Shown here piece by piece: positions 1,617 through 49,082 of a DNA stretch of 64,000 bases. The notes under the pieces were generated by a model that saw only the letters and a list, made by a program, of their open reading frames with translations, was not told the DNA's origin and did no database searches. The DNA is from Fusibacter sp. A1 (GTDB lineage: Bacteria; Bacillota; Clostridia; Peptostreptococcales; Acidaminobacteraceae), in NCBI RefSeq assembly GCF_004125825.1, contig NZ_QQWI01000005.1:304414-368413 (forward strand), in the 5' to 3' direction. Numbering within the stretch: the stretch's first letter is position 1; each line of letters opens with the position of its first letter. The translations under genes were made by a program, and so were the position numbers.

Positions 1617-4241
1617 TTAAACCAATGTAGGCAATAGTGCGAGTGCATCTTTCAATTTAGAAGCATCTTTTCCACCTGCTTGCGCCATGTTAGGACGGCC
1701 GCCGCCGCCACCGCCACAAGCTTTTGCCAATTCTCTTACAATATTACCACAATGCGCACTATTTTTTACAGCGCTTTCATTGGCTTTTGCGATAAAGTTT
1801 ACTTTATCTCCTGTAACATTTGCGATGACAACAAGAACAGCCTCTTCCTTACTCGTCATTTGATCAGCGATGTTTCTGAGTACGTCTTGCTCTTGATCTT
1901 CAAATTCAACAACAATCACCTTCGTGCCATTGATGATCTGTGCATTCTTCTCGATATCTGAAAGACTTGCATTTGCTACAGCCTGCTTCATTTTTGTGAA
2001 TTCTCTAGTGAGTGTTTTGTTCTCGTCAACTAAAGCTACCGCTTTTTGTACTACGTCTTCTCTTTTGCTCTTAAGTGCAGTAACGGTATCATCAAGAATC
2101 GATTCCACTTGATTGAGGTAATGATAGACACCACGGCCTGTAATGGCTTCAATTCGCCTCACGCCAGCTGCGACACCAGCCTCTGAAGTGATTTTGAAAA
2201 GACCGATTTCTGAAGCATGTTTAAGGTGCGTACCACCGCAAAGTTCCATGCTATAATCGCCGATAGTGACCATACGGACAAGCTCACCGTACTTTTCACC
2301 AAAGAGAGCCATAGCTCCGCGTTTTTTCGCCTCTGCGATCGGCAGTTCCTCTACTGTGACAGGCATACCAAGGAATACTTTTTCATTGACGATTTGCTCC
2401 ACCTTTGACACTTCCTCAAAGCTCAGACCTTGGAAGTGGGTAAAGTCAAATCTTAGACGATCCACTTCAACTAGTGAACCAGCCTGTTCGATGTGTCCGC
2501 CAAGCACATCCTTAAGCGCCTGATGTAAAAGATGAGTCGCCGTATGGTTTCTAGCGATATCAAGTCGTTTGTCCTCACCGACCTCAGCAGAAATCATATC
2601 TCCTTTTTTCAGGCTACCTTCAATTAACGAAACGTGATGCAAGATCGTACCTGTTTTCGCCTTTTGAGTATCGGTAACCATAAGTTTTGCAGTAGTCGAA
2701 GTCAATACACCGGTGTCGCCCGATTGTCCACCGCTCTCAGCATAAAAAGGAGTACAATCAAGAACAACAAGCCCTTTTGTTTCGCCCGAAAGCTCATCAA
2801 CCAGCTGACCGTCTTTAAGGATTGCGATAACAGTAGCATCATATTGCGTCTTTTCATAACCTACAAACTCTGTAGCAAGTCCGACAAGCGCTTCTGTCGC
2901 ATCACCTGACCAACCTAAGGAATCCGAATCCCTGGAACTTCTAGCACGTTCCTTTTGAGCTTCCATTTCACTTTCAAAAGCTTTCTCGTCTACGCTAAGC
3001 TGATGTTCCTTAACAATTTCAAGCGTCAGGTCAAGCGGGAATCCGTAAGTGTCATATAATTTGAATGCGAGTTCGCCAGTCAATACATTTTTACCAGCAT
3101 CGATAGTATCTTTGATATAGCCTTCTAAAATGGTAAGCCCCTGATCAATCGTCTGTTCGAAGCGATCTTCTTCAATGGCAATCACTTTTTTAGTGTAATC
3201 CTGTCTTGCAATCAGCTCAGGATATGCTTCTCCGAACACTTCAATCACCGTATCAACCAGTTCAAATAAGAACGCGCCTTGTATACCAATCAGTCTACCG
3301 TGTCTTGCAGCACGTCTTAATAGCCTTCTAAGAACATAACCCCTGCCCTCGTTGTTAGGCATTACCCCATCGGTAACCAGGAAGGTCACCGCACGTATGT
3401 GGTCTGTGATGATTCTTATCGACGTATCCGTCTTATGATCGGCACCGTAAACTTTTCCGCTTCTTTGTGCGATCTGATTTCTAATATGCACCATGGTATC
3501 GATATCGAATATCGAGGTCACATCCTGCATCAGGCAAGCGATACGCTCAAGGCCCATGCCGGTATCGATGTTGGGATTCTTAAGAGGAGTCATCTCGCCT
3601 TTTTCGTCCTTTTCGAATTGAGTGAATACTAGGTTCCAAAACTCAACAAACCTGTCACAGTCACAACCTGGCTTGCAATCAGGGTCACCACAACCGTAAG
3701 CTTCGCCTCTGTCGTAATAGATTTCAGAACATGGACCGCATGGGCCTGTTCCTGTTCCGATTTCCCAGAAGTTATCTTCTTTTCCTAGTCTGACAATCCT
3801 ATCGGCGGGAACATTCTCTTGTTTCAACCAGATGTCATACGCTTCGTCGTCTTCAAGGTAAACCGTTACCCAAAGCTTATCAAGCGATAGTTCCAGTTCC
3901 TGCGTGATGAACTCCCAGCTGTATCGGATCGCTTCTTTTTTGAAGTAATCACCAAAAGCGAAGTTACCAAGCATCTCGAAGAATGACGCGTGTCTTGAAG
4001 TATGTCCTACATTGTCGATATCGTTCGTTCTGATACACTTTTGGCAAGTTGCCATGTTCTTGCTTGGCGGTTCTTGAACGCCGGTGAAAAAGTCTTTTAA
4101 AGGCACCATGCCGGCATTTATAAGCAGAAGCGTCTTATCCGATTGCGGTACTAGGGGGTAGGACGGTTGAACTAGATGTCCGTTTCTTTCAAAGTAATCT
4201 AAGAATCGTTTTCGTATTTCGTTTAGACTCATGGTTTTCAT
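1617..4241 (-). CDS. alaS: Alanine--tRNA ligase
   Basis: 874 aa. N-terminal class II aaRS catalytic core, editing domain, and C-terminal GGG-rich segment before the DHHA1-like end. Confidence 0.95.
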   Translation of the reverse strand: MKTMSLNEIRKRFLDYFERNGHLVQPSYPLVPQSDKTLLLINAGMVPLKDFFTGVQEPPSKNMATCQKCIRTNDIDNVGHTSRHASFFEMLGNFAFGDYFKKEAIRYSWEFITQELELSLDKLWVTVYLEDDEAYDIWLKQENVPADRIVRLGKEDNFWEIGTGTGPCGPCSEIYYDRGEAYGCGDPDCKPGCDCDRFVEFWNLVFTQFEKDEKGEMTPLKNPNIDTGMGLERIACLMQDVTSIFDIDTMVHIRNQIAQRSGKVYGADHKTDTSIRIITDHIRAVTFLVTDGVMPNNEGRGYVLRRLLRRAARHGRLIGIQGAFLFELVDTVIEVFGEAYPELIARQDYTKKVIAIEEDRFEQTIDQGLTILEGYIKDTIDAGKNVLTGELAFKLYDTYGFPLDLTLEIVKEHQLSVDEKAFESEMEAQKERARSSRDSDSLGWSGDATEALVGLATEFVGYEKTQYDATVIAILKDGQLVDELSGETKGLVVLDCTPFYAESGGQSGDTGVLTSTTAKLMVTDTQKAKTGTILHHVSLIEGSLKKGDMISAEVGEDKRLDIARNHTATHLLHQALKDVLGGHIEQAGSLVEVDRLRFDFTHFQGLSFEEVSKVEQIVNEKVFLGMPVTVEELPIAEAKKRGAMALFGEKYGELVRMVTIGDYSMELCGGTHLKHASEIGLFKITSEAGVAAGVRRIEAITGRGVYHYLNQVESILDDTVTALKSKREDVVQKAVALVDENKTLTREFTKMKQAVANASLSDIEKNAQIINGTKVIVVEFEDQEQDVLRNIADQMTSKEEAVLVVIANVTGDKVNFIAKANESAVKNSAHCGNIVRELAKACGGGGGGRPNMAQAGGKDASKLKDALALLPTLV

Positions 4242-4261: not shown

Positions 4262-4716
4262 GTGTTTTTTGTGGAGTTTTTGGGTTGTTTGTTTTTTTTG
4301 CTTGTTGCGTTTAGTTTGTGTGGTTAGTTAGTTACATTAAAATTTTGTGGCATCGTTATTACTGCTCCGGTCCGTCAATAAAAGACATTGACTTACACCG
4401 GTTACGAACAAAGTACGTTCGTAAATGACTTACACCGGTTACGAACAAAAAGCGTTCGTAAGCAAAAACAAAAAATACCCTCCAGTGACGTACTGACTTA
4501 GGGACGAGCAAATGCCCGCGGTACCACCCTAATTATCTGTGATCACTCAGAAGGTTCTAAACCTATCAATTTAACGCATTGCTACGGGTTTGGCTACAAA
4601 TCAGGTTCACCAATCCAGCTCGGAAGCTGCTTCTATCCTTTTGAAAGCTTTCAGCATGTTTCACTTTCTCTCTAGTGTTAAGGAATTCTCTCTTCGTCTT
4701 CGCTTTTTATTATTCA
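4262..4716 (-). promoter_or_regulatory. T-box riboswitch leader of alaS
   Basis: Minus strand contains the canonical T-box sequence AATTAGGGTGGTACCGCGGG (plus 4515-4534), followed by a U-run. C/A-rich spacer to the GGAG RBS. Confidence 0.65.
4393..4461 (-). repeat. Tandem duplicated ~34-nt hairpin module inside the alaS leader
   Basis: Two near-identical units GACTTACACCGGTTACGAACAAA(G/A)...GTTCGTAA. Each forms a TTACGAAC/GTTCGTAA stem. Confidence 0.5.
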
Positions 4717-26706: not shown

Positions 26707-26814
26707 GTTTTACCTAATCCTTCATTTAGTCTCATCCATACGCCAGCTTATACCATTATACCAATTTAAAAGGATTTAATACTTGATTTATGGTAATTGT
26801 AAAAATAGAATAAA

Positions 26815-26840
26815 AACGACATCACAAGTGTGATGTCGAC
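26815..26840 (-). terminator. Terminator after the GGDEF gene
   Basis: GACATCACAC-TTGT-GTGATGTC hairpin plus a U-run on the minus strand. Confidence 0.5.
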
Positions 26841-26855
26841 CTCATAAGGCTCAAT

Positions 26856-27575
26856 TCAATTACTTTCGATATCAGAATCATTCTTCTCAAAAGCAACAAC
26901 TCTATTTCTCCCTGTTTGCTTTGCCTTATAAAGGGCTTGATCTACATAACTAATAATATCTTCAAAATCAATTTTACTTTCATCTGAATAGTTGATTACT
27001 CCAAAACTTGAGGTTACTTGAGTTACTGGAGAAAAATCAAAGTTTGAAATAAGTTGTCTTATAGCTTCAGAAAGTTTGAGTGCTGTCTCTAATGTGCTTT
27101 GTGGCATTAAGATCATGAACTCCTCGCCACCCCAGCGAGCAAAGGTATCTGACTCTCTGAGTCTACTTTGCACCAATTCAGAAAGTTTCTTTAAAACAAA
27201 ATCACCAATATCATGGCCATAGGTATCATTAACATTTTTAAAATGATCAATGTCAAACATGATAATCGAAAATCCTATACCATATCGTCCTATTCTACTA
27301 AATTCATATTTGAGTACTTCAATAAATCGTCTTCTGTTGAATATTCCTGTCAGTTGGTCTGTTACAGATAACCGTTTGATTTCTTTTAAATTTTCTTCTA
27401 GTTCTCTATAAAGCAAGATATTCCTATGTACAACATCGAACAGCAAATCTCTCATTATTCTATTATCATTATCTACTGCGATGGACTCCAATATTGCTTG
27501 AACAAACATGTTTTGGCGGCCTTCACTGTCTTCATGGTTAAGAATATCGATTAATCCTTGCATTGAAGTTACCAT
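26856..27575 (-). CDS. GGDEF-domain diguanylate cyclase
   Basis: Active-site GGEEF (ARWGGEEFMIL), I-site-like RxxD, FDIDHFKNVND. Confidence 0.85.
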   Translation of the reverse strand: MVTSMQGLIDILNHEDSEGRQNMFVQAILESIAVDNDNRIMRDLLFDVVHRNILLYRELEENLKEIKRLSVTDQLTGIFNRRRFIEVLKYEFSRIGRYGIGFSIIMFDIDHFKNVNDTYGHDIGDFVLKKLSELVQSRLRESDTFARWGGEEFMILMPQSTLETALKLSEAIRQLISNFDFSPVTQVTSSFGVINYSDESKIDFEDIISYVDQALYKAKQTGRNRVVAFEKNDSDIESN

Positions 27576-28423
27576 ATGTGATCTTCTCCATTCGCCTCAA
27601 TCCCATCAATTCCTATGTCGGTAATATCATACAACTTATCAATAATCACCTTAACCTGTTCCGCACCTCTTATCAGACTGCCATGTTGAGGTGCGATGAG
27701 TTCAATGTCAAGTTCCCTACATTTATCTAGTGTCTTTCTAAGTGCAAGATTTGATGTCATAATAATTTGATGAAATCTAATAATTCCCGGCATAAAGCAT
27801 GTATCTCTACCAATTGGGCAATCATCATAGCTCGAGCATTCGCTACATTTCTCACTGACATCCATAAATAAATCCCAGTGCTTCCCATACGCGCCGAAAA
27901 TATCTGAACTGAAAAGTGTCTTTGTCTGCTCATCATAAGTTACAAAACTTCCTGGTGAATGGGTATAAGGTGTATTTATGAATTTTAGTCTTCTTCCCGT
28001 TCTAAATCCCCATGAGTTTCTAATCTTGTTAATACACACTAATTTTGATGTTGTAGAGTAATGTTGAATAAAGATATTGTTTTGTTTTTGAGAAATAATC
28101 TCTAATTCATTATTACTGATAATACTTTCAAAATTTGAAACACTTCCTACTAGATCGGGATCATAATGCTGATAAATCAAGCGTACAATTTGGTCAGGAA
28201 GTATACCAGTCATCAATACTTTCATCATCACACTACTAAAATCCGGTCTGCTACCACCATCGATCAAGACCCCTTCATCGCCTTCATAGATCAGGTAGGG
28301 GTTGGAATGTAAACCGTTCTCTTTGTCGTTGTAGCCTACCCAGTATATCCCTTGTGCCACTTCAGCCGCTTTATCATAATCCATAAGTTTCCTCCTGCTA
28401 TTATTCATCCGAAGATTACTCAT
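27569..28423 (-). CDS. MBL-fold diiron-type (flavodiiron-protein N-domain / ODP-like) sensor protein, translationally coupled to GGDEF
   Basis: GIYWVGYNDKENGLHSNPYLIYEGDEGVLIDGG matches the FDP beta-lactamase-like domain. Candidate ligands are QHYDPD, YTHSPGS, SSDIFG and APQHG. 7-bp overlap with the cyclase. Confidence 0.55.
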   Translation of the reverse strand: MSNLRMNNSRRKLMDYDKAAEVAQGIYWVGYNDKENGLHSNPYLIYEGDEGVLIDGGSRPDFSSVMMKVLMTGILPDQIVRLIYQHYDPDLVGSVSNFESIISNNELEIISQKQNNIFIQHYSTTSKLVCINKIRNSWGFRTGRRLKFINTPYTHSPGSFVTYDEQTKTLFSSDIFGAYGKHWDLFMDVSEKCSECSSYDDCPIGRDTCFMPGIIRFHQIIMTSNLALRKTLDKCRELDIELIAPQHGSLIRGAEQVKVIIDKLYDITDIGIDGIEANGEDHIW

Positions 28424-28508
28424 GTAAATGGGATTGAATAATTACTATTATGTGTTATGTACCCTAAATGGCTTGATTTCAACTACTTCTTAAAAAATCG
28501 CTAAAAAA

Positions 28509-35514: not shown

Positions 35515-38500
35515 CTACTTCAGTTTGCTGCTATCAACACTAACTTCAATTCTATCAATCTGATGATTGCGCATGAAAATTCGTTGACTGATTGACTTAT
35601 TAAGCATGTTGGTAGCTTCGAACTCACCTGATGTTCCATCGTTGTAATAGACTGTAATCTTGCGCTCAAGAGCAAACTTGTAAACAACCGGAACCGCACA
35701 GAACGTAAAGGCTAAGGAACCAGGCTCAAGTTGTATTGCCGTTTTTTGCGTCTTGTCACCTTTTGAAGGTAGAGTCCATAGGCTCGCATCTTTAAGAAAC
35801 TCAGACTTAGGAAGTAGTACTGGATCAAAAATAAGACAACCGCTTTTAACCTTGACGCCTAGTTCTCCGAACCGTGCGATGAAATCTTCCTTAACCTGCC
35901 CAGTCATTCCTGGTTGCTGCACTCCTGCAAAACCTGGAGTGTGAGAATAAGGATCTGTTGGGAACGCACCATAGTCTTCCGGCGACTTCTCTAGTCCGAT
36001 TCCCGCTTTTATGTCTTCATAATAATGCATTAGCTCTTTTGTCTCATGACTCATTCCACTCGTTGTGTACGCGTCAAAAAAGTTTTCCTGAGTGATCAAG
36101 GCTAATTTGGAAACCATATGCCAGTAGATGCATCCAAGGCCTTCATACTTGTAAAAAGTGCCCGAACGTCCTGTGAATGCGTGATGGTTGAACAGTCTAG
36201 TAAAGATTTCTCCAACCGCTTCTATATCCGAAACCTCATAATCATTTGATCTTTCAATCGCTTCAACCAACTCATCGCTGTTTCTGAATTGTCCATTAAA
36301 ATGATAGTTTCCATGAATATCTTTTTCAATAAATCTTGTCCGTCCAGCGTCGATTTCGGTTTTAAGTACTACTGAAGACATCACCTCAGCTGCTGGCACG
36401 ATATTCTTTTCTAAAAATTTTGGTAGCTCGCGGTTTGGATAAAGCATATAGCTGTTCTGATCCTCGCGGTAAATACTGCTGCTTCTTAGTGCCTTTAAGA
36501 CGCTTACAGCCTCTTTACTGTCAAGCGCCTTAGAACTGAGCACGGCGACCTGACCTTCTAGCATTTCATATAAATTAGAAACAGAACACGTATCACCGTC
36601 GAAGTGAATCAGGTTGTAAGAGTGATATAGACCATCTTCACGTTTATTCTTATTGATTGAATCCTTTAAGTGATCTGATGAAACCTCAATAAACGCCTTT
36701 AGCGATTCAGTCGGCAATGCTTTTTTTATACCTGTAAAACCATTGTCGTAGATCGAATTTCTATACGTCTGACCGATCTCACCAAGTGACTTGACTACTG
36801 CAAATCGATTCTCGTTTGAAATGTTCTGACCTAGTAACTGCCTATTCTCTTCAAGTACAGTCAAGGTATCGTTAAACATGTCAAGTACTTCTATAGAAAC
36901 TTCAATTTCCTGTTCGGTGATTCCTTCTACAAGATCGCGCATATATGCCAAGAACCGATGTAAGTAACCTAAAGTGACCATAGAGAGCCCATTACCGACA
37001 AGAGCGTTGTTCGCATCATTCCACTCAGGTCGCTGCGTATTCATCCAAATGCCACCTTCCGGTACATAGTTTGAAAATTTAGACAACATTGTTACCAGTA
37101 GCTTTTCCATCAGGTTCACCTTATAAGTCTCATCCCCCTGATATATCAGTTTTCCGTCTGATCCCACTACTTTTGTTTTATCATCAATACGTCTTCCTAG
37201 CTCGTCATCAAAGTCGATGCTGTTCCTTGGGTCTTTGACTAAAGATTTAAAATCTCTTATTCTATATGGCACATTCGCATAGACGAAAACATTTTTATGA
37301 AGAAGCTCTTTTAACTTGCTGGAATCATAATCATTGGAGAGTTCCAAAAGTTTAAGCAAGTAGATGATCTGATGGTCGCCCCAATAACCTATATTGGACC
37401 ATGGATCTTGCGGATCGTGCACCTCCCAATCAATTCCTTCTTTTGTGATTCTGTAAGGATTGTATCCATCCGCCGTCGAAGCATTTAGAAATTTGGCGAT
37501 GATACTTTCAATATACCCAGGGTATGAAATAGACAGCGCTTCCCAGTTTTGAAAAATATCACGCCAGTTTCCTTCAAATTTAAGTTTTTTACTTCCATCA
37601 TCCTTGAATAGATCAATATTGAATTTATTCCACGGACGACTTGGGTCTCCGTGTCTTCTGCTATAGGTAAGCGGTAAGTATTCGTACACCAGTCGTTCAA
37701 AATCTGGGCTGTTAAGTTCTTTTACCAGTGCCAACAACTCATGATACTCAATCGTCTCAGGTAACTGCTTTAAAACGTTAAGATGCATATCATAGACCGA
37801 CTTGTTCCAACCTTCGATGAACTCGTTAAAATCATCTGTATCGATTTTATATTCATCGGCGTAAATACCACCTCTCATGATATTGTAAAGGGTGTTCGAA
37901 AAATGACGGTAGCCCGCCTTCTCATTTGCAGTATGCTGAAAGCCGTCAGCTTCAAATACGAGCCTTCTTAACTTGTTATCACCCTTTAAAACGTCAGCAC
38001 TTAACTCTTGAATTATCATTTGATTCACTTTTAACGAATTTATGAGGCTCTCTACGGATGCGGCACTTTGGTTTAGCTCTGCAACAATCACCCATTCTCT
38101 TTTTTCGTTGCCGCTTAGTTCAAGGGTATCATGAACATAATAGGCGCCTCGTCTCCCTTTGACATCGTACTCCGTTTCAATGGAATTCCCCTTTGTAAAC
38201 ACAGCTAGCTGCTGTTCTGATAAAAGATAAGTCGGATTATCAAAGCCTTTTGACCAAACCGTCGTGGCTTTGAGCGACTCACTTGGTTCAGCCTTATCAG
38301 AAAGGATTGAGCTTAATGTGTATATTCCAAGACCTGTATCCGCATGTAGTTCACATCGTTTGTATCCGTCGACAAGCGTGCTTTTTGTGGTTTGCATCAG
38401 TGTATCTACACCATACGGAAGTATATTTCTAATTCCATCTAAAACCTTGACCTTTATAACTGATTCAGAAAGATTGATAAGTTCAGATGCTTTTACAAAT

Positions 38501-38982
38501 CCGAAAGTGTCGGAACTTTTCCATGTATAGCTAAAGCTCACATTCAAGTCATGATTGATTTCTTCAAAGATGATTTTATTACCTATCGCATTTTTGTAGA
38601 GATTACGCGAAATGACATAGACATCCGCATGTTGAGTAGAAAATGGCTTCCACAAAAACCGTTTCTCTTCTTTTTCGACGATCAAGACGGTATCAGAACC
38701 AGAAGTCTCAATGCTGTCATGTATCTTATCGTCCGTATAATATGGAAACAGCGCTGAATCGGCATTCTTACGTCCGCAAGTCACACCACCCGTGCTTGAT
38801 ATATACATCCAGTGGTCTACATCGCTGACTACAGACATAAAAAAGGGATCCATCTGATTAAAATTCTCAATCTTGAAGAAAGTCTCATCGGATCTTCTTA
38901 TCGTTTCAAGCGAAATCGATTTCGTAAATGGGTTTAAAAGATTGCTGCCAAAATACAAATCTTGTTCATTGCTCATTTTCAT
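35515..38982 (-). CDS. Large cytoplasmic GH94-like glycoside phosphorylase family protein (possibly beta-1,2-oligoglucan phosphorylase-like)
   Basis: 1155 aa, no signal peptide. RPEWNDANNAL resembles the GH94 catalytic-acid motif (G)DWND. Lies in a locus with GH1, ROK kinase, LacI and HAD phosphatase. Confidence 0.5.
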   Translation of the reverse strand: MKMSNEQDLYFGSNLLNPFTKSISLETIRRSDETFFKIENFNQMDPFFMSVVSDVDHWMYISSTGGVTCGRKNADSALFPYYTDDKIHDSIETSGSDTVLIVEKEEKRFLWKPFSTQHADVYVISRNLYKNAIGNKIIFEEINHDLNVSFSYTWKSSDTFGFVKASELINLSESVIKVKVLDGIRNILPYGVDTLMQTTKSTLVDGYKRCELHADTGLGIYTLSSILSDKAEPSESLKATTVWSKGFDNPTYLLSEQQLAVFTKGNSIETEYDVKGRRGAYYVHDTLELSGNEKREWVIVAELNQSAASVESLINSLKVNQMIIQELSADVLKGDNKLRRLVFEADGFQHTANEKAGYRHFSNTLYNIMRGGIYADEYKIDTDDFNEFIEGWNKSVYDMHLNVLKQLPETIEYHELLALVKELNSPDFERLVYEYLPLTYSRRHGDPSRPWNKFNIDLFKDDGSKKLKFEGNWRDIFQNWEALSISYPGYIESIIAKFLNASTADGYNPYRITKEGIDWEVHDPQDPWSNIGYWGDHQIIYLLKLLELSNDYDSSKLKELLHKNVFVYANVPYRIRDFKSLVKDPRNSIDFDDELGRRIDDKTKVVGSDGKLIYQGDETYKVNLMEKLLVTMLSKFSNYVPEGGIWMNTQRPEWNDANNALVGNGLSMVTLGYLHRFLAYMRDLVEGITEQEIEVSIEVLDMFNDTLTVLEENRQLLGQNISNENRFAVVKSLGEIGQTYRNSIYDNGFTGIKKALPTESLKAFIEVSSDHLKDSINKNKREDGLYHSYNLIHFDGDTCSVSNLYEMLEGQVAVLSSKALDSKEAVSVLKALRSSSIYREDQNSYMLYPNRELPKFLEKNIVPAAEVMSSVVLKTEIDAGRTRFIEKDIHGNYHFNGQFRNSDELVEAIERSNDYEVSDIEAVGEIFTRLFNHHAFTGRSGTFYKYEGLGCIYWHMVSKLALITQENFFDAYTTSGMSHETKELMHYYEDIKAGIGLEKSPEDYGAFPTDPYSHTPGFAGVQQPGMTGQVKEDFIARFGELGVKVKSGCLIFDPVLLPKSEFLKDASLWTLPSKGDKTQKTAIQLEPGSLAFTFCAVPVVYKFALERKITVYYNDGTSGEFEATNMLNKSISQRIFMRNHQIDRIEVSVDSSKLK

Positions 38983-41449: not shown

Positions 41450-44400
41450 TTAACTTTCATTCACAGCAACTTCGAATACGTCTTTGATCTTACATAAGCT
41501 ATCTCGAAGATCGCTCAGTACAACTACCGCTTGACCCATTTTATCATCACTTCCAGCCAATTTACTCTTTTGGTAGACTTGCTTGATCTCTGAATATCTG
41601 GCTGATTCATGTTCATTCATATGGCCTGTGATTTCTTTCCATTTCAGAAGGTTGGATTCAGCTCCAGTAGTCAGTGTTTGGCAATCATTTTCATAGCTTG
41701 CTATGATTTGTTCTGTCAACTCAGTATCATTCATCACAGATACGACGCGTTGAGCGATCTTGTTCATGTTTCTGTAAGACCCTTGAAGCTTAAACGGCGG
41801 CTCATTTCTGTATTCGTCAGACTGAGCTGCAGAATGGATATACTCCATATTGACTCTTAAAACAATGTCTCTGACATGACTTAACTTGGTAATCACTTGA
41901 GTGTACTCATTAAGTTCATCGGCCGTATAACTACTTTCCAATGTGATCGACTCCCTATCGACGCCGTTTGCCATCTGCACAAGACCGTATAAGTCAGACT
42001 GGCTTCGACTTGAAAGCTTTGATAAGACAGGGTTAGACGTCAAGCTGTTCTCAATGTAACTAAGCTTGAAGGCTTCCTCATTCTCACGTAGCATGTCCCC
42101 TAGGTTATAAACATCAGCCCTATTGGCAAGCATATCCGGTATTTTAAACTTGGCGCCACTTTCAGTATAAGGATTACCGGCCATGACAACCGCTATTTTC
42201 TTACCTCTCAAATCGTATGTCTGACCGACTCCATTGTAGACACCTTCAATCTTACGCTGCCCGTCGCAAAGGGAGATAAATTTTTGCAAGAACTCAGGGT
42301 CGCAGTGTTGAATATCATCAAGATACAACATCACATTGTTCCCCATTTTAAGCGCTAGATTCAACTTTCTCAGTTCTTCCTTGGCACTCGAATGTGAAGC
42401 CTTGTCAGGATCAAGCGAAGTGATTTCGTTTCCAAGGGAAGGACCATTGATCTTTACAAGAATTATGCCTAATCTGCTGGCGATATATTCCATCAGTGTC
42501 GTCTTACCATAACCAGGCGGCGATACTAAAAGTAGTAATCCCATAAGATCCGTTCGCTTATCATCACCCACTACACCCATTTGCTTAGCAAGATTCTCTC
42601 CTACTAAGGGTAGATACACCTTGTCGATCAGTCTATTTCTGACAAACGATGTCAGCACATTGGGTTTAAAGTCGTCAAGACGAAGTACCTCTTTGAAGTT
42701 TTTGATCAACTCACTTTTAAGTGCGTTGAACTTCAGATAATCATCTACCACTTCTTCGCTGAATAAACGCATTTTTGACATGAACTTTGTATAGCTAAGT
42801 TCGTAAGTTCCATCTGCGATTACGCCGTGCGAGCCTACAAGACCTTCAATAACCGTTTTAGTCGGTACTTGTATGACACCGCTCATGTTCACATCTTCTT
42901 CAAGGAGCAGAACGACCACTTCGTTCAATATGCCTGGCCAATCCTCAGCCTCAATATCCATAGGTGTCTTAAGGCTAGCCGTCTGCTCGTTCCAGTATGC
43001 CAAGACCCATTCCTTAACTAGGAAGAATTGTCCTTCCAGATCGGCTTTACTTGCCTTTAAAGACGCTTCAAAGCTTTCCAGCGCATGATTATCTCTAATA
43101 AACGCTTTAAATCCATCATAGACTTGTTTTGCTTCTAGACTTATCACAAAGGATGTCCCTTGCATTAACTCCTTGCACAAGTATTCCGATGAGGCTTCGA
43201 TACTCACCTTGTCATAAAAACCAAGGGTGTCAAACGCCTTTTCCAGGTTTTCTACAACTAAGGGAAGATAGTTATCCAGACTTGGCGCTGATTTGAAAAA
43301 TGTGCCTACTTTAGTCAAGTGATTCAACCGCGTACTTAACAACGTCTTCGTCTGCTCATCTACAAGACGACTCCAGAATAACCTCGCCATTGATCTTACA
43401 TCGCTTTGATAAGTCAACAGGTTGATATGGTGATGAAGATGAAGTAGCGCGCTTAATATCTTTGTCGCATCCTCATCATGCACCCCTTTTGTATACCCTT
43501 CCTGATACCTTGTCTCCATAAACGTCCTGACACGGTCTAAAAGTTGTGAATCCGACATATCGTATAACGTCTGTAAACTTTCAATTTGTAGATTCCTTGA
43601 TGCTTCAAAAGCAGTATATGCCAGATACTCTCCCCTATAGACATCAGCATTTTCAGAAACGAGTGTCTGTTCAAATACATGCTGATACCCGCTCAATTCA
43701 CGGTGGACCACCCTATCCCAAAAATCAGTTCCTGTGATGTGGTAGTAAAGCTGATTATCCTTTTGAACAATGGATAGGTCAATCGCCTTTCTGTTCACAG
43801 AAAAATGATGGTTGCCAAATTTGATGACATCCTGTCCATTCAGGTAGAGGTCTTGCTTGTCTTTCAACTGACGTATGGCATTTTCTTTGAGTGATTTGAG
43901 CTTGGCACTTACTTCATCCGCTTTGACGCTGTCTCCAAGTGACCTTAGTTCAGAAATGATATCTCTGACTTTTTCGGCCATGATATCAGATGCAAGATAA
44001 CCGTTGATCATTTCAATCGTATCAAGGCCCATCAAACGATTTTGAATACCACCGATGATACGCTGTGAAGAATCGAAAAGTGCGACCAACCGCTTATTAA
44101 GCTTATCTAGTAGCGTCTGCTTTCTCGATTCGAATGCGCTGTAGATCTCTTCTCTTTTTTCATCAAGCTTTATAAGATACTCTTCAAACTCAGAAAACTT
44201 ACCTTCAAGCTCCTGAAGCTGTACCATCACCTTATTCAGGTAATTGTCACACTTGTCTTCTGTATCAGCTATTTCAAGATAGTTCAAAACAGCCTGACCA
44301 AGCAGCTTCATTTGAGCGTTAAACTGAATCGTCATCTCGGTTTTTGTGAAGGTTTCGATTCTGACTTTCAGTTTGGCTTTCGCATTATTCATCAAGGAGA

Positions 44401-46336
44401 AGAGAGCAGAAATCTTTTCGATAAGTTCTGTTGTCACTGTCGGGTCTTCGATTTTAAAATTGCTTACTATTTCCATCAACAACTCTAAATCGGTGGACGT
44501 CTTGTCCATTTTTACAGCAAGTTCATTTCCCTCTAGCGACTTTTCGACCGATTCGATCGAACTATGCAACTCATCTACAACCATCTCATACGGCTTCAGG
44601 CCGTCTGGGCTTACGATGAACGCGACACATTTTTCAGAAAATGCGTCATTTTTTTCTTTGACGCGATCCTCTAATTTCTGAACCACGTCAAGGTCTGTAT
44701 ACATCAGATCTCTCAACGAGACTATTTCACCGCGTATGTTTCTGATTTCGCCAAGTACATCGACGTATTCATTGATGTTCTCAAAGGTTCCATATTCAAT
44801 CTTTTTAAGCAGCTCCTCCGTTGTCTTTCCAACTAGTTCGATTTGCTTCTTTGCTACTTCCTTCATTCGAATGACTTTTTCGAATTCTCCAATTGCAAAA
44901 GTGGATGTCTCTTTGATCTCCTTAAGCACCTGAGCAAGATTGAAAGCCTCATCCTTATCCACCCAAAAGTAGGAATCCAAAATGTTTTGAGTTTCCTTTA
45001 CAATATCAAGGTACACGCTTTGATAGCTGTCCCCCTTTTGTACAAGTTTTCCGACACCTCTGCAGGCCGCTATACAGTCAACGACATCCTTATTGCCTAT
45101 CTTGTAGAGTACCGAATCCCTATTCCCCTGAGCAACATGATTCTTGCCGACATAAGGTGTCTGCCATACTTGAAGTGAATGGTTTTTTCTGGGTTCATTC
45201 TCATGTCTGAATACGATCATCTCACCACTATTAAAATGTGAATAGCCACTACAGACGATAGGCATTTCTATTGTCTGCTCAATCATATTATACGAGTACA
45301 TCAGATAGGTACCGCTATCCATATTATAAAAGATATACTGATAGTCCTCGCCGTTTGTAGAACTGATAATCTGATCAAACACCGCATTTTCTAGGGGCAC
45401 GTCAAAGAGCTTATATTCCCCACTTCTCAAGTAATACCCTTGAGGAAAGATCAAGCCATGTCCTCCTGGCAAAAGCTTGCACGTATGTTCCATTGAATCA
45501 ACTCGAACCACATTCTTCAACTTGTTGTTGAAGACAAAGTAACGGTAGGCTTTTTCCTTATAGGGAAGAATCTTAAGCAGGATCAGCTGATCCAAGTCCA
45601 CATAGTAGATCTCGGCATCGTCAAGGTTTTGGTCCTTATCCTCAACAACCTCAGAATAGATACCTTTTCCCGTTTCGGTATTGTCCTCAACCTTAATCGT
45701 AAGGTCTCCACCTATAGTTTCGACAAATACCTTATCCAGAATGGAAACATGGGGGTGGATACCTGTTCTTTGCTGGTCTCTTGTCGCCCTCTGAAAGTCG
45801 AAATCATTGCCTAGGTTGAACTTTACTTCGTGCTCGCTTCTGTTATCGACATAAATCAAACGACGACCTTCGATCAGCCACTTGAACACTTTAATATCCG
45901 TCGCAGCTTTTCCGGTCTGAAAGACCATGTAAAAGTAAGGTTCAGAGATTGTGAACTTGGCAAAGAAGGTGTTCTTGTAGTACTGATACAGATCATCAAA
46001 ATCCTTTTTGAAAAGGTCATCGTTGATCAGTTCGAGGGATTCCTTTATGAATCCCTCTTCACCATACTTGTAAATTGAGAAAACATCCTCAAGTTCAACC
46101 TTTTGCTTCAAGCCGATATGAACGTTGTATCCAAAAAGGAAGCAATCGTCCACAGGTGCCATATCACGAGGGATGCAGTTGTTCTCTGTAAGAATCCTCT
46201 CACTGGCAAGTAGTTTTGTATCAACGGACCCAAAAACATCTTTTCTAGTAGCATTCAATTTCTCCGCTCTTGTTTTTAAGTCGACACCTTGTTTTTCCAG
46301 ACGACTCTTAATTACCTCATAAGTCCCTGAATCCAT
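41450..46336 (-). CDS. Giant (≈1630 aa) uncharacterised AAA_5-type ATPase
   Basis: Start at the ATG 1 nt after the flotillin stop, with a TTGGAG RBS. N-terminal ~450 aa beta-rich, ~750 aa helical/coiled-coil, then Walker A SPPGYGKTT, Walker B VMLYLDDIQH and sensor VVMAGNPY near residues 1250-1420. Function unknown, although the ORF itself is near-certain. Confidence 0.5.
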   Translation of the reverse strand: MDSGTYEVIKSRLEKQGVDLKTRAEKLNATRKDVFGSVDTKLLASERILTENNCIPRDMAPVDDCFLFGYNVHIGLKQKVELEDVFSIYKYGEEGFIKESLELINDDLFKKDFDDLYQYYKNTFFAKFTISEPYFYMVFQTGKAATDIKVFKWLIEGRRLIYVDNRSEHEVKFNLGNDFDFQRATRDQQRTGIHPHVSILDKVFVETIGGDLTIKVEDNTETGKGIYSEVVEDKDQNLDDAEIYYVDLDQLILLKILPYKEKAYRYFVFNNKLKNVVRVDSMEHTCKLLPGGHGLIFPQGYYLRSGEYKLFDVPLENAVFDQIISSTNGEDYQYIFYNMDSGTYLMYSYNMIEQTIEMPIVCSGYSHFNSGEMIVFRHENEPRKNHSLQVWQTPYVGKNHVAQGNRDSVLYKIGNKDVVDCIAACRGVGKLVQKGDSYQSVYLDIVKETQNILDSYFWVDKDEAFNLAQVLKEIKETSTFAIGEFEKVIRMKEVAKKQIELVGKTTEELLKKIEYGTFENINEYVDVLGEIRNIRGEIVSLRDLMYTDLDVVQKLEDRVKEKNDAFSEKCVAFIVSPDGLKPYEMVVDELHSSIESVEKSLEGNELAVKMDKTSTDLELLMEIVSNFKIEDPTVTTELIEKISALFSLMNNAKAKLKVRIETFTKTEMTIQFNAQMKLLGQAVLNYLEIADTEDKCDNYLNKVMVQLQELEGKFSEFEEYLIKLDEKREEIYSAFESRKQTLLDKLNKRLVALFDSSQRIIGGIQNRLMGLDTIEMINGYLASDIMAEKVRDIISELRSLGDSVKADEVSAKLKSLKENAIRQLKDKQDLYLNGQDVIKFGNHHFSVNRKAIDLSIVQKDNQLYYHITGTDFWDRVVHRELSGYQHVFEQTLVSENADVYRGEYLAYTAFEASRNLQIESLQTLYDMSDSQLLDRVRTFMETRYQEGYTKGVHDEDATKILSALLHLHHHINLLTYQSDVRSMARLFWSRLVDEQTKTLLSTRLNHLTKVGTFFKSAPSLDNYLPLVVENLEKAFDTLGFYDKVSIEASSEYLCKELMQGTSFVISLEAKQVYDGFKAFIRDNHALESFEASLKASKADLEGQFFLVKEWVLAYWNEQTASLKTPMDIEAEDWPGILNEVVVLLLEEDVNMSGVIQVPTKTVIEGLVGSHGVIADGTYELSYTKFMSKMRLFSEEVVDDYLKFNALKSELIKNFKEVLRLDDFKPNVLTSFVRNRLIDKVYLPLVGENLAKQMGVVGDDKRTDLMGLLLLVSPPGYGKTTLMEYIASRLGIILVKINGPSLGNEITSLDPDKASHSSAKEELRKLNLALKMGNNVMLYLDDIQHCDPEFLQKFISLCDGQRKIEGVYNGVGQTYDLRGKKIAVVMAGNPYTESGAKFKIPDMLANRADVYNLGDMLRENEEAFKLSYIENSLTSNPVLSKLSSRSQSDLYGLVQMANGVDRESITLESSYTADELNEYTQVITKLSHVRDIVLRVNMEYIHSAAQSDEYRNEPPFKLQGSYRNMNKIAQRVVSVMNDTELTEQIIASYENDCQTLTTGAESNLLKWKEITGHMNEHESARYSEIKQVYQKSKLAGSDDKMGQAVVVLSDLRDSLCKIKDVFEVAVNES

Positions 46337-46337
46337 A

Positions 46338-48362
46338 TTATGCTCCAATTACATTTTCAATTAGATTGGCTGGTAGATTTGCAACACCCGCCTTGTTTAC
46401 AGTATCAAGTAGCTTAGTCAACATCGCATGGTCGTTTCCTTCTGCAGTCTTCATCATTTTTCCTATAGCACCCGAAATGGTGATGTTCATCAGGTCTTGA
46501 GAAGATAAGTTGAATCTTCCTACCATCGTTTTAAGCTGCTGCTGGAAGTAGTCCGCGTCTCCTGTGATGAGGGTCTCTTTGATATCCTTTAGCACTTCAC
46601 TGTTGTTTACAACACGGTCAACCGCCTTACCTTGCGCGATCGAACCGATAATTTTGTCAAAGAACATCGTTTCTCCACCGACAATATCGATCTTAGCTGA
46701 TTTAAGCGCTTCTCTGATAACAGACGCTTGAGCATCTGCAATATCCTTTTGAATGGTGATTTGAGCAAGTTCGATCTGTTTTTCCTTATCAAGCTTGAGT
46801 TTGAACTCTTCATGATCTCTGCCTACAGCATCAAGTAATTTCATGCTATTGGCCTTTTCCTTGATACCTTCAGCTTCTGAAAGGTACATTCTCTTAAGGT
46901 TTGCAGCTTCGACAGTACCGTCTTTCTCTTTTACTTCTACTTTGGCGGTTTCGCCTTTGGCTTCTGCAAGTGCTTTCGCTTCAATCACTTTCGATGCGGC
47001 AATACCTTCGACAGAACCTTCCAGCACTCTGGCATCAACAATCACCTTGATCGCTTCCGCTTCTTTATGAGCGGCTTTCAGATTTGCATCTGCGTCGATA
47101 ATTGTCTTTTCGGCTTCTTTTTCAGCAGCCATCTTGGCGGCTTCCGCACCTTTAACAACAAGAATTTGCTTTGTTTCCGCCTCTTCTTCTGCTTTTCTGA
47201 GCGCTACATTTTTTGTACGGTTTGCATCCGCAAGCGCACGCGTGTCTTTGATTTTTTCTTCTTCCACCACGGTATCTTTTTCGACAGTCACTCTTTCTCT
47301 AATTACCGTCTGTATATTCTTCTTCTCAACTTCTACTAGCTTTTCCTTATCGATGATAGCAAGCTCGACAAGCTTTTCCTTTTCAGTTCTCTCAAGCAGT
47401 CTTTTTCTTTCTACACGTTCAGTTTCGATGGCTTCTGTGCTTTCCTTGGACTTTGCCGCAATGATGATCTGTCTTTGCTTGTTCTCCTCGGCTACACCAA
47501 TCTCTTCTTCTGTCTTCACTCTGGCAAGCTCAGACTTATAGCGTTCTTCTTGAGCGACCTTTTCAGCTTCGGCGATTTCACGTGAATTGATGATCGAAAT
47601 CTCTCTAAGCTGTTTGGCTTCGGCTTCGGCGTTTTGCTTTTCAAGTTCTAAAATAGCTTCTCTTGCCGATACGTCTTGTCGCTTGATTGTCTTTTCGCGT
47701 TCTCTTTCAATCTCGTTGGCCAATATTCTTTGAGTTGAAGTCAGTTCTGTGATCTTCTTGATCCCCTCAGAATCCAAAATGTTGTCAGGATTCAACAAGC
47801 GAATGTCGGTTTGCTCCAGATAATCGATCGCGGCATCATCCAACACATAACCGTTTAAGTCCGTGCCGATGATCTGCAGGATTTCACTCTTAAAAGTCTC
47901 ACGGTCCGTATATAACTGAACAAAATCAAACTTTTTGCCTACAGTCTTAAGCGCTTCAGAGAATTTTGCATCAAAGAAGGCCATTAGGGTTTCCGGATCG
48001 GATGCTTTTTGACAACCCAGCAGCTGTGCGACTTTTAAAACGTCATCTGTCGTCTGATTGACACGAACGAAGAATGCGACACGGATATCCGCCCTTAAGT
48101 TGTCTTTACAGATCAAGCCGTCCTTGCCTTCTCTAGCGATTTCGACACGTTTGATCGAAATATCCATCTCCTCTTTGCGGTGGATGATGGGTACTACCAT
48201 GATGCCGCCAAAGCAGACAACCTGATTGCCGATACCGTTTCTAATGATTACCTTCGACTGCTCCACCTTGTGATAGAAACTGGCAAATAAGGCCAGTAGT
48301 CCAACCACAATGACGATTGATGCTCCTACCGTGACAAGGGTTCCTTGTAATAAAACATTCAT
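46338..48362 (-). CDS. floT: Flotillin-family (SPFH/band-7, FloT/YqiK-like) protein
   Basis: N-terminal TM + SPFH domain, then a long EA/K-rich coiled-coil. Start at MNVLLQG with GGAGGAA RBS, not the longer ORF start at 48377. Confidence 0.85.
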   Translation of the reverse strand: MNVLLQGTLVTVGASIVIVVGLLALFASFYHKVEQSKVIIRNGIGNQVVCFGGIMVVPIIHRKEEMDISIKRVEIAREGKDGLICKDNLRADIRVAFFVRVNQTTDDVLKVAQLLGCQKASDPETLMAFFDAKFSEALKTVGKKFDFVQLYTDRETFKSEILQIIGTDLNGYVLDDAAIDYLEQTDIRLLNPDNILDSEGIKKITELTSTQRILANEIEREREKTIKRQDVSAREAILELEKQNAEAEAKQLREISIINSREIAEAEKVAQEERYKSELARVKTEEEIGVAEENKQRQIIIAAKSKESTEAIETERVERKRLLERTEKEKLVELAIIDKEKLVEVEKKNIQTVIRERVTVEKDTVVEEEKIKDTRALADANRTKNVALRKAEEEAETKQILVVKGAEAAKMAAEKEAEKTIIDADANLKAAHKEAEAIKVIVDARVLEGSVEGIAASKVIEAKALAEAKGETAKVEVKEKDGTVEAANLKRMYLSEAEGIKEKANSMKLLDAVGRDHEEFKLKLDKEKQIELAQITIQKDIADAQASVIREALKSAKIDIVGGETMFFDKIIGSIAQGKAVDRVVNNSEVLKDIKETLITGDADYFQQQLKTMVGRFNLSSQDLMNITISGAIGKMMKTAEGNDHAMLTKLLDTVNKAGVANLPANLIENVIGA

Positions 48363-48380
48363 ATAGTATTCCTCCATAAG

Positions 48381-49082
48381 TTAAATAGTGTTGCCATCGT
48401 TCATCAGTGGTGTGGTGATAAAGTACACATCGTCCACCTTATCCTTGCTAAATACAAATACGGTCTCACCTTTTTTATAAACAAGATGTTTGTCGGCTGT
48501 GGTGACATTAATGACAATCGATACTCCGTCCTGCATGATCTCTGCCTGTCCGAGCCGTCCATATTCCACATCGCTTTTCAAAGTGCATCTTTTGTAAAGC
48601 ACCCTATGGGCAATGTCTTCCTCATTTTTCCTTTCAAAAAAAAGCTTTCTTATCGGAATAAGCTCAAGTTTCGTTATGTAAAGGCTCAAAAAAAATGCCG
48701 GTATCAAAAGCACCGCGCTGATCAGACCGCCCGCTTGAATCGGAAGGACATACAAGAGCATGCTTGATATCCAGAAGTTCAGAAAAATCATACTGAGTAC
48801 CAGGGCGAATGGGATATCACCGCTGTTAACAAGCACCGCGATACCGCTAAGCGGTCCTGACGCATCAGCACCTTCCACATCGAGATCGACATCAAACAAA
48901 TCAAAATCCAGAAAGCCTGTGATAGCCACCAACCAATATAGCTGCATCAAAATCAGCAGTGCGGTAGGTATGACATTTATTCCTGTAAAAGCAAATCTTA
49001 TTAATTCCGTAACAATCACCTCCATCGTACAATCATCGTAAGAACAGGTAACGACTAGGCCTAGAGTATCAGGCTTTAGCAT
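48381..49082 (-). CDS. NfeD-like (YuaF/YqiJ-type) membrane protein
   Basis: Multi-TM N-terminus, C-terminal OB-like soluble domain. Immediately upstream of flotillin as in yuaF-floT and yqiJ-yqiK. Confidence 0.6.
   Translation of the reverse strand: MLKPDTLGLVVTCSYDDCTMEVIVTELIRFAFTGINVIPTALLILMQLYWLVAITGFLDFDLFDVDLDVEGADASGPLSGIAVLVNSGDIPFALVLSMIFLNFWISSMLLYVLPIQAGGLISAVLLIPAFFLSLYITKLELIPIRKLFFERKNEEDIAHRVLYKRCTLKSDVEYGRLGQAEIMQDGVSIVINVTTADKHLVYKKGETVFVFSKDKVDDVYFITTPLMNDGNTI

Follow-up and report, generated by a model that had tools for sequence, protein, structure and literature searches.

Two genes on the minus strand share seven nucleotides in the window, as we call the whole 64,000-nucleotide stretch of Fusibacter sp. 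A1 DNA that was analysed. The upstream gene (27569..28384, minus strand) encodes a 271-aa ODP-family sensor protein, as judged from its Pfam PF19583 match, PDB and fold matches, and the length of its homologues. The downstream gene (26856..27575, minus strand) encodes a 239-aa diguanylate cyclase in which an N-terminal helical module is followed by a GGDEF domain. In the shared heptamer ATGGTAA (27569..27575, minus strand) the cyclase start overlaps the ODP stop, and these overlapping codons suggest that translation of the ODP and of the cyclase is coupled. A first-pass annotation of this DNA had described a 284-aa ORF overlapping a GGDEF gene by 7 bp, and both minus-strand ORFs and the 7-bp overlap are as it described them; the peptide strings that it quoted also occur in the translation. 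The longer ORF (27569..28423, minus strand) does run to 284 aa, but as a protein it is over-extended. The real start is almost certainly M14, at the ATG at 28384, because a Shine-Dalgarno sequence read from the DNA (AGGAGG, 28391..28396, minus strand) lies 6 nt 5' of it, nearly all homologues are about 271 aa long, and the NCBI call on this contig is also 271 aa.

A hairpin resembling an intrinsic terminator (26808..26838, minus strand), with a 9-bp stem containing five GC pairs and a T-run next to it, starts 18 nt past the cyclase stop codon and is a candidate for closing the two-gene unit; terminator-like sites in this region do not exceed shuffle expectation, so it is put forward for its position and quality only. 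The promoter scan of the region was uninformative, with 13 matches against 13.2 expected, and one promoter-like match (28428..28400) was rejected since it would put the transcription start inside the ribosome-binding site. Within the interval of the gene pair no further ORF of at least 60 aa was found on either strand, and Rfam returned no riboswitch near the operon, its sole match in the window being a T-box at 4497..4709. Next to the pair lie a gene for a P-loop kinase-like protein and one for a methyltransferase. Elsewhere in the window lies a second GGDEF gene, which encodes a TPR-GGDEF protein.

The upstream protein is a member of the ODP family. It scores 186 bits against the Pfam ODP model PF19583 (cut-off 27.2), residues 38-248 matching profile positions 1-194 of 194, and 51 bits against Lactamase_B. 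Pfam found no flavodoxin domain in it and nothing beyond ODP/Lactamase_B, which bears out the first-pass description of a flavodiiron-type metallo-beta-lactamase (MBL) domain standing without flavodoxin. The NCBIfam flavorubredoxin models gave 38-42 bits, far under their cut-offs of 635-711. Sequence matches in the PDB were to 6qrq (2.9e-23) and 6qnm (6.8e-17), and a Foldseek search with the AlphaFold model (pLDDT 85) placed 6qrq, 6qwo, 6r9n and 6qnm at ranks 1-9 and 11 with TM-scores of 0.70-0.85, the top hits scoring 0.72/0.81; flavodiiron proteins came behind these solved ODPs, with E-values of 1e-13 to 1e-16. Among the PDB ODP entries matched by fold are apo, Zn and peroxo forms. The protein is no more than 26-27% identical to the characterised ODPs, and none of the 120 best homologues fuses the ODP to an output domain.

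The residues that would hold the metals are preserved throughout. Motif 2, H86-Y-D88-P-D90 (28154..28168, minus strand) followed by L91, aligns to the HQDPD of the Thermotoga maritima and Treponema denticola ODPs. His155 of motif 3 (27959..27961, minus strand) aligns with the ODP histidine in 6qrq and 6qnm, Asp174 of motif 4 (27902..27904, minus strand), by analogy the bridging aspartate, with the SGD of the same two structures, and Gln246-His247 within the PQHG of motif 5 (27683..27688, minus strand) with their APQHG. H86, D88, D90, H155, D174, Q246 and H247 are all invariant in an alignment of 17 homologues (49-75% identity), and the H-x-D-x-D and PQHG motifs recur in 117-120 of 120 database homologues. 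The first-pass ligand list of H-x-D-x-D, H, D, H therefore aligns residue by residue with 6qrq and 6qnm, but it left out Gln246. The glutamine of PQHG is an ODP-specific ligand that takes the place of the fourth motif 2 residue, which ODPs lack (PMC7785958). That fourth position is a leucine in all 120 homologues, where flavodiiron proteins carry a histidine; in the alignment, HYDPDL faces HTEPDH of the T. maritima flavodiiron protein. Neither the flavodiiron motif H-x-E-x-D-H nor the Zn motif of canonical MBL hydrolases, H-x-H-x-D-H, is present, HYDPDL standing in the place of each. Alignment to flavodiiron and ODP structures, which the first-pass annotation had proposed as a check, thus yields the full ODP-type ligand set and sets the protein apart from a plain MBL hydrolase. 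We infer that the Fusibacter ODP binds iron at a dinuclear carboxylate/His/Gln site.

How such a site might be read is a separate matter. The cyclase may be switched by whether the dinuclear site is metallated or apo, and not by the binding of O2, in which case the protein would report on Fe(II) availability. The title of Muok et al. 2019 reportedly terms ODP an Fe[II] and oxygen sensor, and the genus Fusibacter has a species named F. ferrireducens. In the literature ODP figures as an auxiliary sensory subunit with direct binding of both iron and oxygen (PMC6978683), and the solved structures cover apo, Zn and peroxo forms. Against this, nothing in the locus points to genes of iron uptake or storage, its neighbours being the kinase-like and methyltransferase genes, and a response to iron is in any case compatible with O2 sensing and does not exclude it. 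As the sole explanation we hold iron availability to be quite unlikely.

The first-pass annotation passed over a second conserved feature of the protein. The insertion CSECSSYDDCPIGRDTC (27797..27847, minus strand), characteristic of the subfamily, contains C193, C196, C202 and C209 and is a candidate second metal or Fe-S site. All four cysteines are invariant in the alignment of 17 homologues, with the spacing CxxC-x5-C-x6-C. The insertion is found in 90 of the 92 ODPs from the loci and in 119 of the 120 database homologues, 99 of which keep the x2/x5/x6 spacing. In the T. maritima and T. denticola ODPs the corresponding loop is 14 residues shorter and free of cysteine. Treponema and Thermotoga ODPs reversibly bind O2 as a peroxo adduct. 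Since the four-Cys insertion is without counterpart in the characterised ODPs, the sensing chemistry of this subfamily may differ from that peroxo-diiron mechanism.

Taken further, the four cysteines could themselves be the sensor, as a labile Fe-S cluster attacked by O2, NO or ROS, or as a redox-active thiol or Zn site. Once lost or oxidised, this site would change the shape of the loop by the active site and so signal to the partner, and the dinuclear site would have a structural role or reset the sensor. The invariance of the cysteines across all output classes fits this proposal, as does the position of the insertion between ligands D174 and Q246/H247, in the segment where the protein departs most from the T. 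maritima and T. denticola ODPs. The CX2CX5C spacing is also that of Cys20, Cys23 and Cys29 in FNR (PMC4672761). A likeness in spacing is no test, however, and a structural Zn would suit four cysteines equally well. The seven dinuclear-site ligands are just as invariant, which argues that this site too is functional, and AlphaFold confidence in the loop is only 75-77. We regard a signalling role centred on the cysteines as unlikely, if less so than one based on iron supply alone.

The cyclase appears intact. Its product matches PF00990 (GGDEF) at 153 bits and TIGR00254 at 170 bits, and is 100% identical to the NCBI entry 'GGDEF domain-containing protein [unclassified Fusibacter]'. The active site, GGEEF at residues 149-153 (27117..27131, minus strand), is invariant in an alignment of 25 ODP-linked cyclases. 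Five residues ahead of it lies an RxxD I-site, RESD at R140-D143 (27147..27158, minus strand), of which R140 is kept in at least 90% of the 25 and D143 in every one. D108, N116, D125, K219 and R223, which we take by analogy to PleD to be the Mg2+/GTP-binding residues, are invariant as well. At the level of its sequence the enzyme would thus be catalytically competent. It has no sensor domain of its own; an N-terminal helix leads directly into the GGDEF domain with its I-site. A weak match of the N-terminus to DUF3683 (E = 0.085) was dismissed as chance.

Our survey of related loci indicates that the pairing is neither local nor limited to cyclases. The survey comprised 83 distinct related ODP loci, 68 of them with a classifiable downstream gene, and all 68 of these genes encode signalling outputs: PP2C/SpoIIE in 28, HD-GYP in 26, GGDEF in 8 plus the window, and histidine kinase in 6. 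Pfam assignments on 67 of the partners gave HD_5 in 26, SpoIIE in 25, GGDEF in 9 and HisKA in 6. The ODP partners thus include both synthases and phosphodiesterases of c-di-GMP, a mix that favours neither sign of regulation, and no chemoreceptor (MCP) was found downstream in the 68 classifiable loci. Intergenic distances are mostly -4, -7 or +1 nt; -4 is the commonest across all classes, and the -7 overlap seen here recurs in 5 of the 8 related ODP-GGDEF loci. The first-pass annotation had asked whether the gene pair is conserved. ODP-GGDEF pairs are indeed kept with differing neighbours across Bacillota, Fusobacteriota and metagenomes, examples coming from a Clostridiales MAG, Natroniella, Fusobacteriaceae and several metagenome contigs, and six loci (L001, L002, L005, L012, L093 and L095) show the pair among unrelated flanking genes. 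The earlier picture of a sensor wired to GGDEF is therefore supported for this pair, but was too narrow, GGDEF being one of four output classes.

The ODP and partner genes co-diversify. The ODP tree groups by partner class, the nearest neighbour belonging to the same class for 62 of the 68 ODPs, and the output classes are nearly monophyletic in it. The subfamily is also abundant: the metagenome scan gave at least 514 related ODP loci, and about 1,500 matching proteins are in the database. A search of genome contigs with the single ODP sequence returned one locus; a query built from an alignment would reach further.

The four partner classes have an N-terminus in common, which the first-pass annotation also passed over. 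In the Fusibacter cyclase this module of about 65-70 aa (27366..27575, minus strand; core residues 29-66, LESIAVDNDNRIMRDLL...) is modelled by AlphaFold as a short helix at residues 5-12 and a continuous helix at residues 17-71 that runs into the GGDEF domain (pLDDT 83-95). The GGDEF, HD-GYP, SpoIIE and histidine-kinase partners of ODP have this coiled-coil module in common. At least 90% of sequences keep A33, D37 and L44, and in each of the four classes the module is set at a constant distance from Met1. An exhaustive HMM search, seeded with 11 short fragments that the N-terminal module profile had matched, put it at the very start of the protein in nearly all of 105 library representatives. 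No Pfam family describes the module, and comparison with the PDB gave no match, the best profile hit (E = 0.019) being unrelated. An ODP gene precedes the short GGDEF homologues with the module, and a 296-aa GGDEF homologue that lacks its motif has no ODP neighbour. We propose from these patterns that the module serves as an ODP-docking and dimerisation stalk.

Two simpler accounts of the locus can be weighed against these data. The adjacency and overlap might be fortuitous and the two proteins independent of each other, for which one can cite the general frequency of GGDEF genes, as seen in the TPR-GGDEF gene of the same window. The pair nevertheless persists across Bacillota, Fusobacteriota and metagenomes while its flanks change, and it is the module-bearing short GGDEF proteins, not the module-less homologue, that follow an ODP; conservation effectively refutes coincidence, and we give it next to no weight. 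Alternatively, the ODP-like protein might be an enzyme, a scavenger of O2, NO or H2O2 or else a hydrolase, that is merely co-transcribed with signalling genes. It does belong to the metallo-beta-lactamase superfamily and is distantly similar to flavodiiron proteins that reduce NO and O2. It has, however, no flavodoxin or other domain for electron input, and HYDPDL replaces the HxHxDH of the hydrolases. A signalling neighbour at 68 of 68 loci, a module shared by the partners and ODP clades that follow partner class would likewise be unexpected for a housekeeping enzyme. We consider an enzymatic role highly improbable.

The reading that we favour, with a confidence somewhat above even, is that the gene pair encodes a signalling protein split into two subunits, in which the ODP gates c-di-GMP synthesis in trans. 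The sensor would be the 271-aa ODP-type protein, with its MBL fold, its dinuclear iron site and the four-Cys site of its subfamily. Overlapping codons would lead to co-translation, so that both proteins are made together, and the ODP would bind the cyclase stalk in its conserved N-terminal half. A change in the metal, ligand or redox state of the ODP would then alter its conformation or association, which in turn may alter the coiled-coil stalk and with it how readily two GGDEF domains come together. Synthesis of c-di-GMP could thereby be tied in a strict anaerobe to O2, which is the most likely signal, with NO, redox state and the supply of Fe2+ as alternatives. The physical complex and its docking on the stalk are suggested only by conservation and genetics, and the signal, O2 foremost, is a candidate whose effect on the cyclase could be of either sign.

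The wider pattern suggests that ODP relatives wired through one N-terminal helix to four kinds of enzyme form a plug-in kit for oxygen, iron or redox sensing in anaerobes. It is tempting to go a step further and speculate that the four-Cys ODPs are unrecognised, widespread dual-cofactor sensor subunits of anaerobes, with a Cys-ligated Fe or Fe-S site beside the dinuclear iron site, that act in trans by clamping a universal N-terminal coiled-coil adaptor of about 65 aa which evolution has joined to four unrelated output enzymes. We offer this broader proposal tentatively and think it rather doubtful. Were it true, one O2, NO or redox input could be routed to c-di-GMP, to partner-switching control of sigma factors or to a phosphorelay, and the four-Cys ODPs would parallel the RsbT-RsbU and H-NOX systems as a counterpart based on metalloproteins.

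Strict anaerobes must sense traces of O2, NO or iron limitation, and to our knowledge few dedicated sensors are known in them. We know of ODP being characterised so far only as an input to chemotaxis. Our literature searches, in full texts other than the original ODP paper, found no paper on an ODP-cyclase pair or a four-Cys ODP. The data suggest that a distinct and abundant ODP subfamily feeds into the making and degradation of c-di-GMP, into partner-switching through PP2C and into two-component signalling. The Fusibacter pair, of 271 and 239 aa, offers a simple system in which control of a cyclase by a gas or metal sensor acting in trans can be reconstituted, and the four-Cys insertion is a candidate new metal site. 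The signature of the module predicts which apparently sensor-less GGDEF, HD-GYP, SpoIIE and kinase proteins are under ODP control. Moreover, the partner families amount to a natural experiment on whether coiled-coil linkers render sensory inputs interchangeable among effector families.

Among known systems, the closest are the ODPs of Treponema denticola (TDE2498) and Thermotoga maritima (6qnm, 6r9n, 6qrq, 6qwo), which share PF19583, a single MBL domain without flavodoxin, and all of the ligands, the Gln of PQHG among them. There ODP acts in trans on a sensor-less receptor (PMC7666581, PMC6978683). The first-pass analogy to ODP-chemoreceptor pairs holds in that a separate sensor gene lies beside a gene for a sensor-less signalling protein in both. 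The Fusibacter subfamily differs in its 14-residue four-Cys insertion and in a conserved C-terminal (I/V)G(I/V)D tail. It differs also in its partners, which are GGDEF, HD-GYP, PP2C and histidine-kinase proteins marked by the shared N-terminal helix module, whereas the partner of the characterised ODPs is a chemoreceptor. The diiron domain is homologous to the MBL-type domain of flavodiiron proteins (FprA, ROO and the flavorubredoxin NorV). Those proteins, in contrast, have a flavodoxin/FMN domain and H-x-E-x-D-H where the ODP has H-x-D-x-D-L, and they work in detoxification or electron transfer where the context of the ODP subfamily is signalling.

Other systems are analogous in arrangement or chemistry. 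In stand-alone H-NOX systems a small gas sensor is encoded beside a histidine kinase, diguanylate cyclase or phosphodiesterase that has no sensor of its own, and controls it in trans; H-NOX has a haem cofactor and a fold unrelated to ODP, and is a functional analogue only. Hemerythrin-GGDEF proteins (Bhr-DGC; PMC9388753) and globin-coupled diguanylate cyclases (PMC7033309) place GGDEF under the control of an O2-binding metal centre. These sensors are fused in cis and have other folds, whereas the Fusibacter sensor is a separate MBL-fold polypeptide. The [4Fe-4S] O2 sensor FNR has Cys20, Cys23, Cys29 and Cys122 as ligands (PMC4672761); the spacing of its first three equals that of the first three cysteines of the ODP insertion, with no homology in sequence or fold. 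The fourth cysteine follows after 6 residues in the insertion and is far off in FNR, and the contexts are unrelated. In the RsbT/RsbU system the effectors, which include PP2C, histidine-kinase and GGDEF proteins, are controlled by a trans-acting partner by way of an N-terminal domain and a coiled-coil linker (PMC12143880). Here too a separate protein would act on an exchangeable N-terminal helical dimerisation module with a coiled-coil linker, which in our case would be bound by the ODP. The ODP-partner module shows no detectable similarity to RsbU_N (no Pfam match in 67 partners at E<=1e-3), and where RsbT is a kinase released from the stressosome, the partner in Fusibacter would be a metalloprotein sensor.

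The ORF scan places an oxygen-binding di-iron protein (ODP)-type ORF of 284 aa at 27569..28423 on the minus strand and, downstream of it on the same strand, a GGDEF ORF of 239 aa at 26856..27575; the interval holds no rival ORF of 60 aa or more on either strand. The two ORFs have the seven nucleotides ATGGTAA in common, as end of one and start of the other, in agreement with the 7-bp overlap described in the first-pass annotation. The 284-aa ORF described there is also present, but its start does not stand. Because the ATG at 28384 (M14) is preceded by AGGAGG at 6 nt, homologues are almost all about 271 aa, and NCBI's annotation of the source contig likewise gives the protein 271 aa, M14 is almost certainly the real start, giving 271 aa (residue numbers here follow the 284-aa ORF). 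The cyclase stop is followed, after 18 nt, by a strong hairpin and T-run, and the nearest relatives have just these two genes in common with the window, with differing flanks; the ODP and cyclase genes look like a two-gene unit.

The sensor protein matches the ODP family PF19583 at 186 bits (cut-off 27.2) and Lactamase_B at 51 bits, and Pfam matched no further domain, consistent with the earlier statement that a flavodoxin domain is absent. NCBIfam flavorubredoxin models score just 38-42 bits against cut-offs above 600, and we therefore rejected a flavodiiron enzyme identity. Its best solved sequence relatives are the ODPs of Thermotoga maritima (6qrq, E = 2.9e-23) and Treponema denticola (6qnm, E = 6.8e-17), with flavodiiron proteins (FDPs) next. 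A Foldseek search with the AlphaFold model (pLDDT 85.4) placed ODP chains at ranks 1-9 and 11 (TM 0.70-0.85) and FDPs after them, so that predicted structure and sequence rank the relatives alike. In the alignment, H86-Y-D88-P-D90 falls over HQDPD of both solved ODPs, H155 over the ODP His, D174 over the Asp of SGD, and P-Q246-H247-G over APQHG; the seven residues H86, D88, D90, H155, D174, Q246 and H247 are invariant in 17 of 17 homologues (49-75% identity), and the H-x-D-x-D(L) and PQHG motifs occur in 117-120 of the 120 best database homologues. The candidate ligands originally read from the sequence (H-x-D-x-D, H, D, H) are therefore retained on proper alignment. The final His of HTEPDH in the T. 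maritima FDP aligns with a Leu of the window protein. ODPs have an unusual coordination set in which a motif-5 Gln stands in for that His (PMC7785958), and the window sequence predicts exactly this arrangement, with Leu after the motif and Gln in motif 5. All testable ODP features are present save a chemoreceptor (MCP) partner, and the protein lacks the features that define flavodiiron proteins and metallo-beta-lactamase hydrolases; the solved ODPs have an MCP as partner, whereas here it is a GGDEF cyclase.

A four-cysteine insertion, CSECSSYDDCPIGRDTC (27797..27847, minus strand), sits in the segment that joins D174 and Q246. Its cysteines are invariant in our homologue alignment and kept in 90 of 92 locus ODPs and 119 of the 120 best database homologues (99 with x2/x5/x6 spacing), whereas the T. 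maritima and T. denticola ODPs have at this place a loop 14 residues shorter and devoid of Cys. The first three are spaced like Cys20, Cys23 and Cys29, which ligate the cluster of FNR (PMC4672761), a hint, to be taken as a lead only, of an Fe-S-type site; the insertion would suit a structural Zn site just as well, and AlphaFold confidence within the loop is 75-77. Past the core, the C-terminal tail (residues 265-284; 27572..27631) bears an (I/V)G(I/V)(D/E) motif found in 114 of the 120 best homologues, with G271 invariant and D273 in at least 90% of aligned sequences. This tail may help to form the contact with the partner.

The annotation of the overlapped gene as a GGDEF cyclase holds (Pfam GGDEF, 153 bits), with GGEEF at residues 149-153 and an I-site, RESD, at 140-143. 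D108, N116, D125, K219 and R223, which by reference to PleD we take to be the Mg2+/GTP-binding residues, are invariant across 25 ODP-linked cyclases. No recognised sensor domain was found in the cyclase, and its AlphaFold model (pLDDT 88.8) has a short helix at 5-12 followed by an unbroken helix, 17-71, running into the GGDEF domain.

The gene pair is kept in relatives. An ODP gene with a short GGDEF gene recurs in a Clostridiales MAG (69% identity, likewise with a 7-nt overlap), GCA_002919055, Natroniella and a 981-kb contig, each time with different flanking genes. Reciprocally, two distant short GGDEF homologues (about 45% identity), from Fusobacteriaceae and another contig, each have an ODP upstream; a 296-aa spirochaete GGDEF homologue has neither an upstream ODP nor the N-terminal motif described below. 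Other ODP homologues at about 50% identity precede sensor-less histidine kinases (Nitrospirae and others) or PAS-HD-GYP proteins. A metagenome search confirmed at least 514 ODP relatives, and 80 further loci were taken. We extracted the downstream ORF from each of 83 distinct ODP loci; 14 downstream genes were truncated, by a contig end or otherwise, one locus had no space for any, and 68 were classifiable. The partners are SpoIIE/PP2C (28 loci), PAS-HD-GYP (19), short HD-GYP (7), GGDEF (8, plus the window) and HisKA-HATPase (6), in agreement with Pfam on the 67 unique partners (HD_5 26, SpoIIE 25, GGDEF 9, HisKA 6). ODP-partner gaps are chiefly -4, -7, -1 or +1 nt, the pattern of translationally coupled subunits. 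ODPs cluster by partner class in a neighbour-joining tree (nearest neighbour of the same class for 62 of 68), so sensor and output have co-diversified.

Some loci have further features. In two Fusobacteriaceae metagenome contigs (L093, 176..3675, and L094) the gene immediately 5' of ODP-GGDEF, on the same strand, encodes an MCP that has a Cache/HAMP sensor of its own, an arrangement that could reflect chemotaxis/ODP-cyclase cross-talk or coincidence. In GCA_002919055 the gene for a response-regulator-hemerythrin protein, another diiron-type sensor (L002, 8..838, minus strand), lies at a distance of about 4 kb from the pair. In four metagenome contigs (L021, L057, L060 and L081) the gene 3' of ODP is ended early by a stop, at 28-71 aa, and at least the L060 and L081 products still start with the partner motif; such genes could reflect pseudogene formation, errors in the sequence or a free-standing adaptor peptide.

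All four output classes open with the same segment of about 65 aa, whose spacing from Met1 hardly varies and which has the consensus ...L-E-x-x-A-x-x-x-D-x-x-I-x-x-x-L-L-x-x-L-h-x-x-Y...L...N..L; A33, D37 and L44 (window numbering) are kept in at least 90% of 59-67 partner sequences. Its high-information positions (29/30, 33, 37, 40, 44/45, 48/49, 52, 59, 63 and 66) follow 3/4 heptad spacing with a conserved Asn at 63, which fits a parallel dimeric coiled coil. The N-terminal half of the segment, where Ala and Asp occupy seam positions, is conserved beyond what packing needs, and we therefore read this half as a putative surface for ODP binding. Pfam has no family for the module, and the PDB gave no match (best E = 0.019, an unrelated entry). 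When 1.84 billion representatives were searched exhaustively by HMM, 105 proteins with the module were recovered at E <= 1e-3, the match beginning at residue 1-30 in almost all.

Elsewhere in the window, a second diguanylate cyclase (60799..62427, minus strand; 542 aa) has TPR repeats and GGDEF, an architecture unrelated to the ODP-linked cyclase. A T-box leader (RF00230; 4497..4709, minus strand), at 93.4 bits barely over the gathering score of 93, precedes an alanyl-tRNA synthetase gene (1617..4241, minus strand; tRNA-synt_2c, 674 bits), which fits an origin in Bacillota. Three large genes in the same orientation (41450..49082, minus strand) form a block that begins with the gene for a 1632-aa protein (DUF3686, 'ATPase involved in DNA repair', 583 bits; DUF7902; AAA domain), which overlaps a 679-aa ORF without Pfam match; a 233-aa ORF comes next, and PADLOC matched neither of these two ORFs. 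The block is a candidate repair or defence module of uncharacterised type. Neither Pfam nor PADLOC matched two long ORFs, of 1155 aa (35515..38982, minus strand) and 625 aa (53811..55688, minus strand).

The evidence best supports a split sensor-effector, in which the ODP, as sensory subunit, would dock on the conserved stalk of the cyclase dimer and gate the productive meeting of the two GGDEF domains. In view of the ODP ligand set and of a host genus, Fusibacter, that is strictly anaerobic, the signal is most likely O2; Fe2+ occupancy, NO and redox chemistry at the four-cysteine site are the other candidates. The searched literature held no description of the four-cysteine insertion, of the shared N-terminal adaptor, or of ODP coupling to c-di-GMP enzymes, PP2C phosphatases or kinases, although the original ODP paper may mention non-MCP neighbours. 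Precedent for the split sensor-effector exists in the ODP-chemoreceptor system, where the ODP, which binds iron and O2, works in trans on a chemoreceptor lacking its own sensor (PMC7666581, PMC6978683). A second precedent is the RsbT/RsbU system, in which the separate partner RsbT binds RsbU at an N-terminal helical module with its coiled-coil linker, a module that PP2C phosphatases, histidine kinases and GGDEF cyclases alike can carry (PMC12143880).
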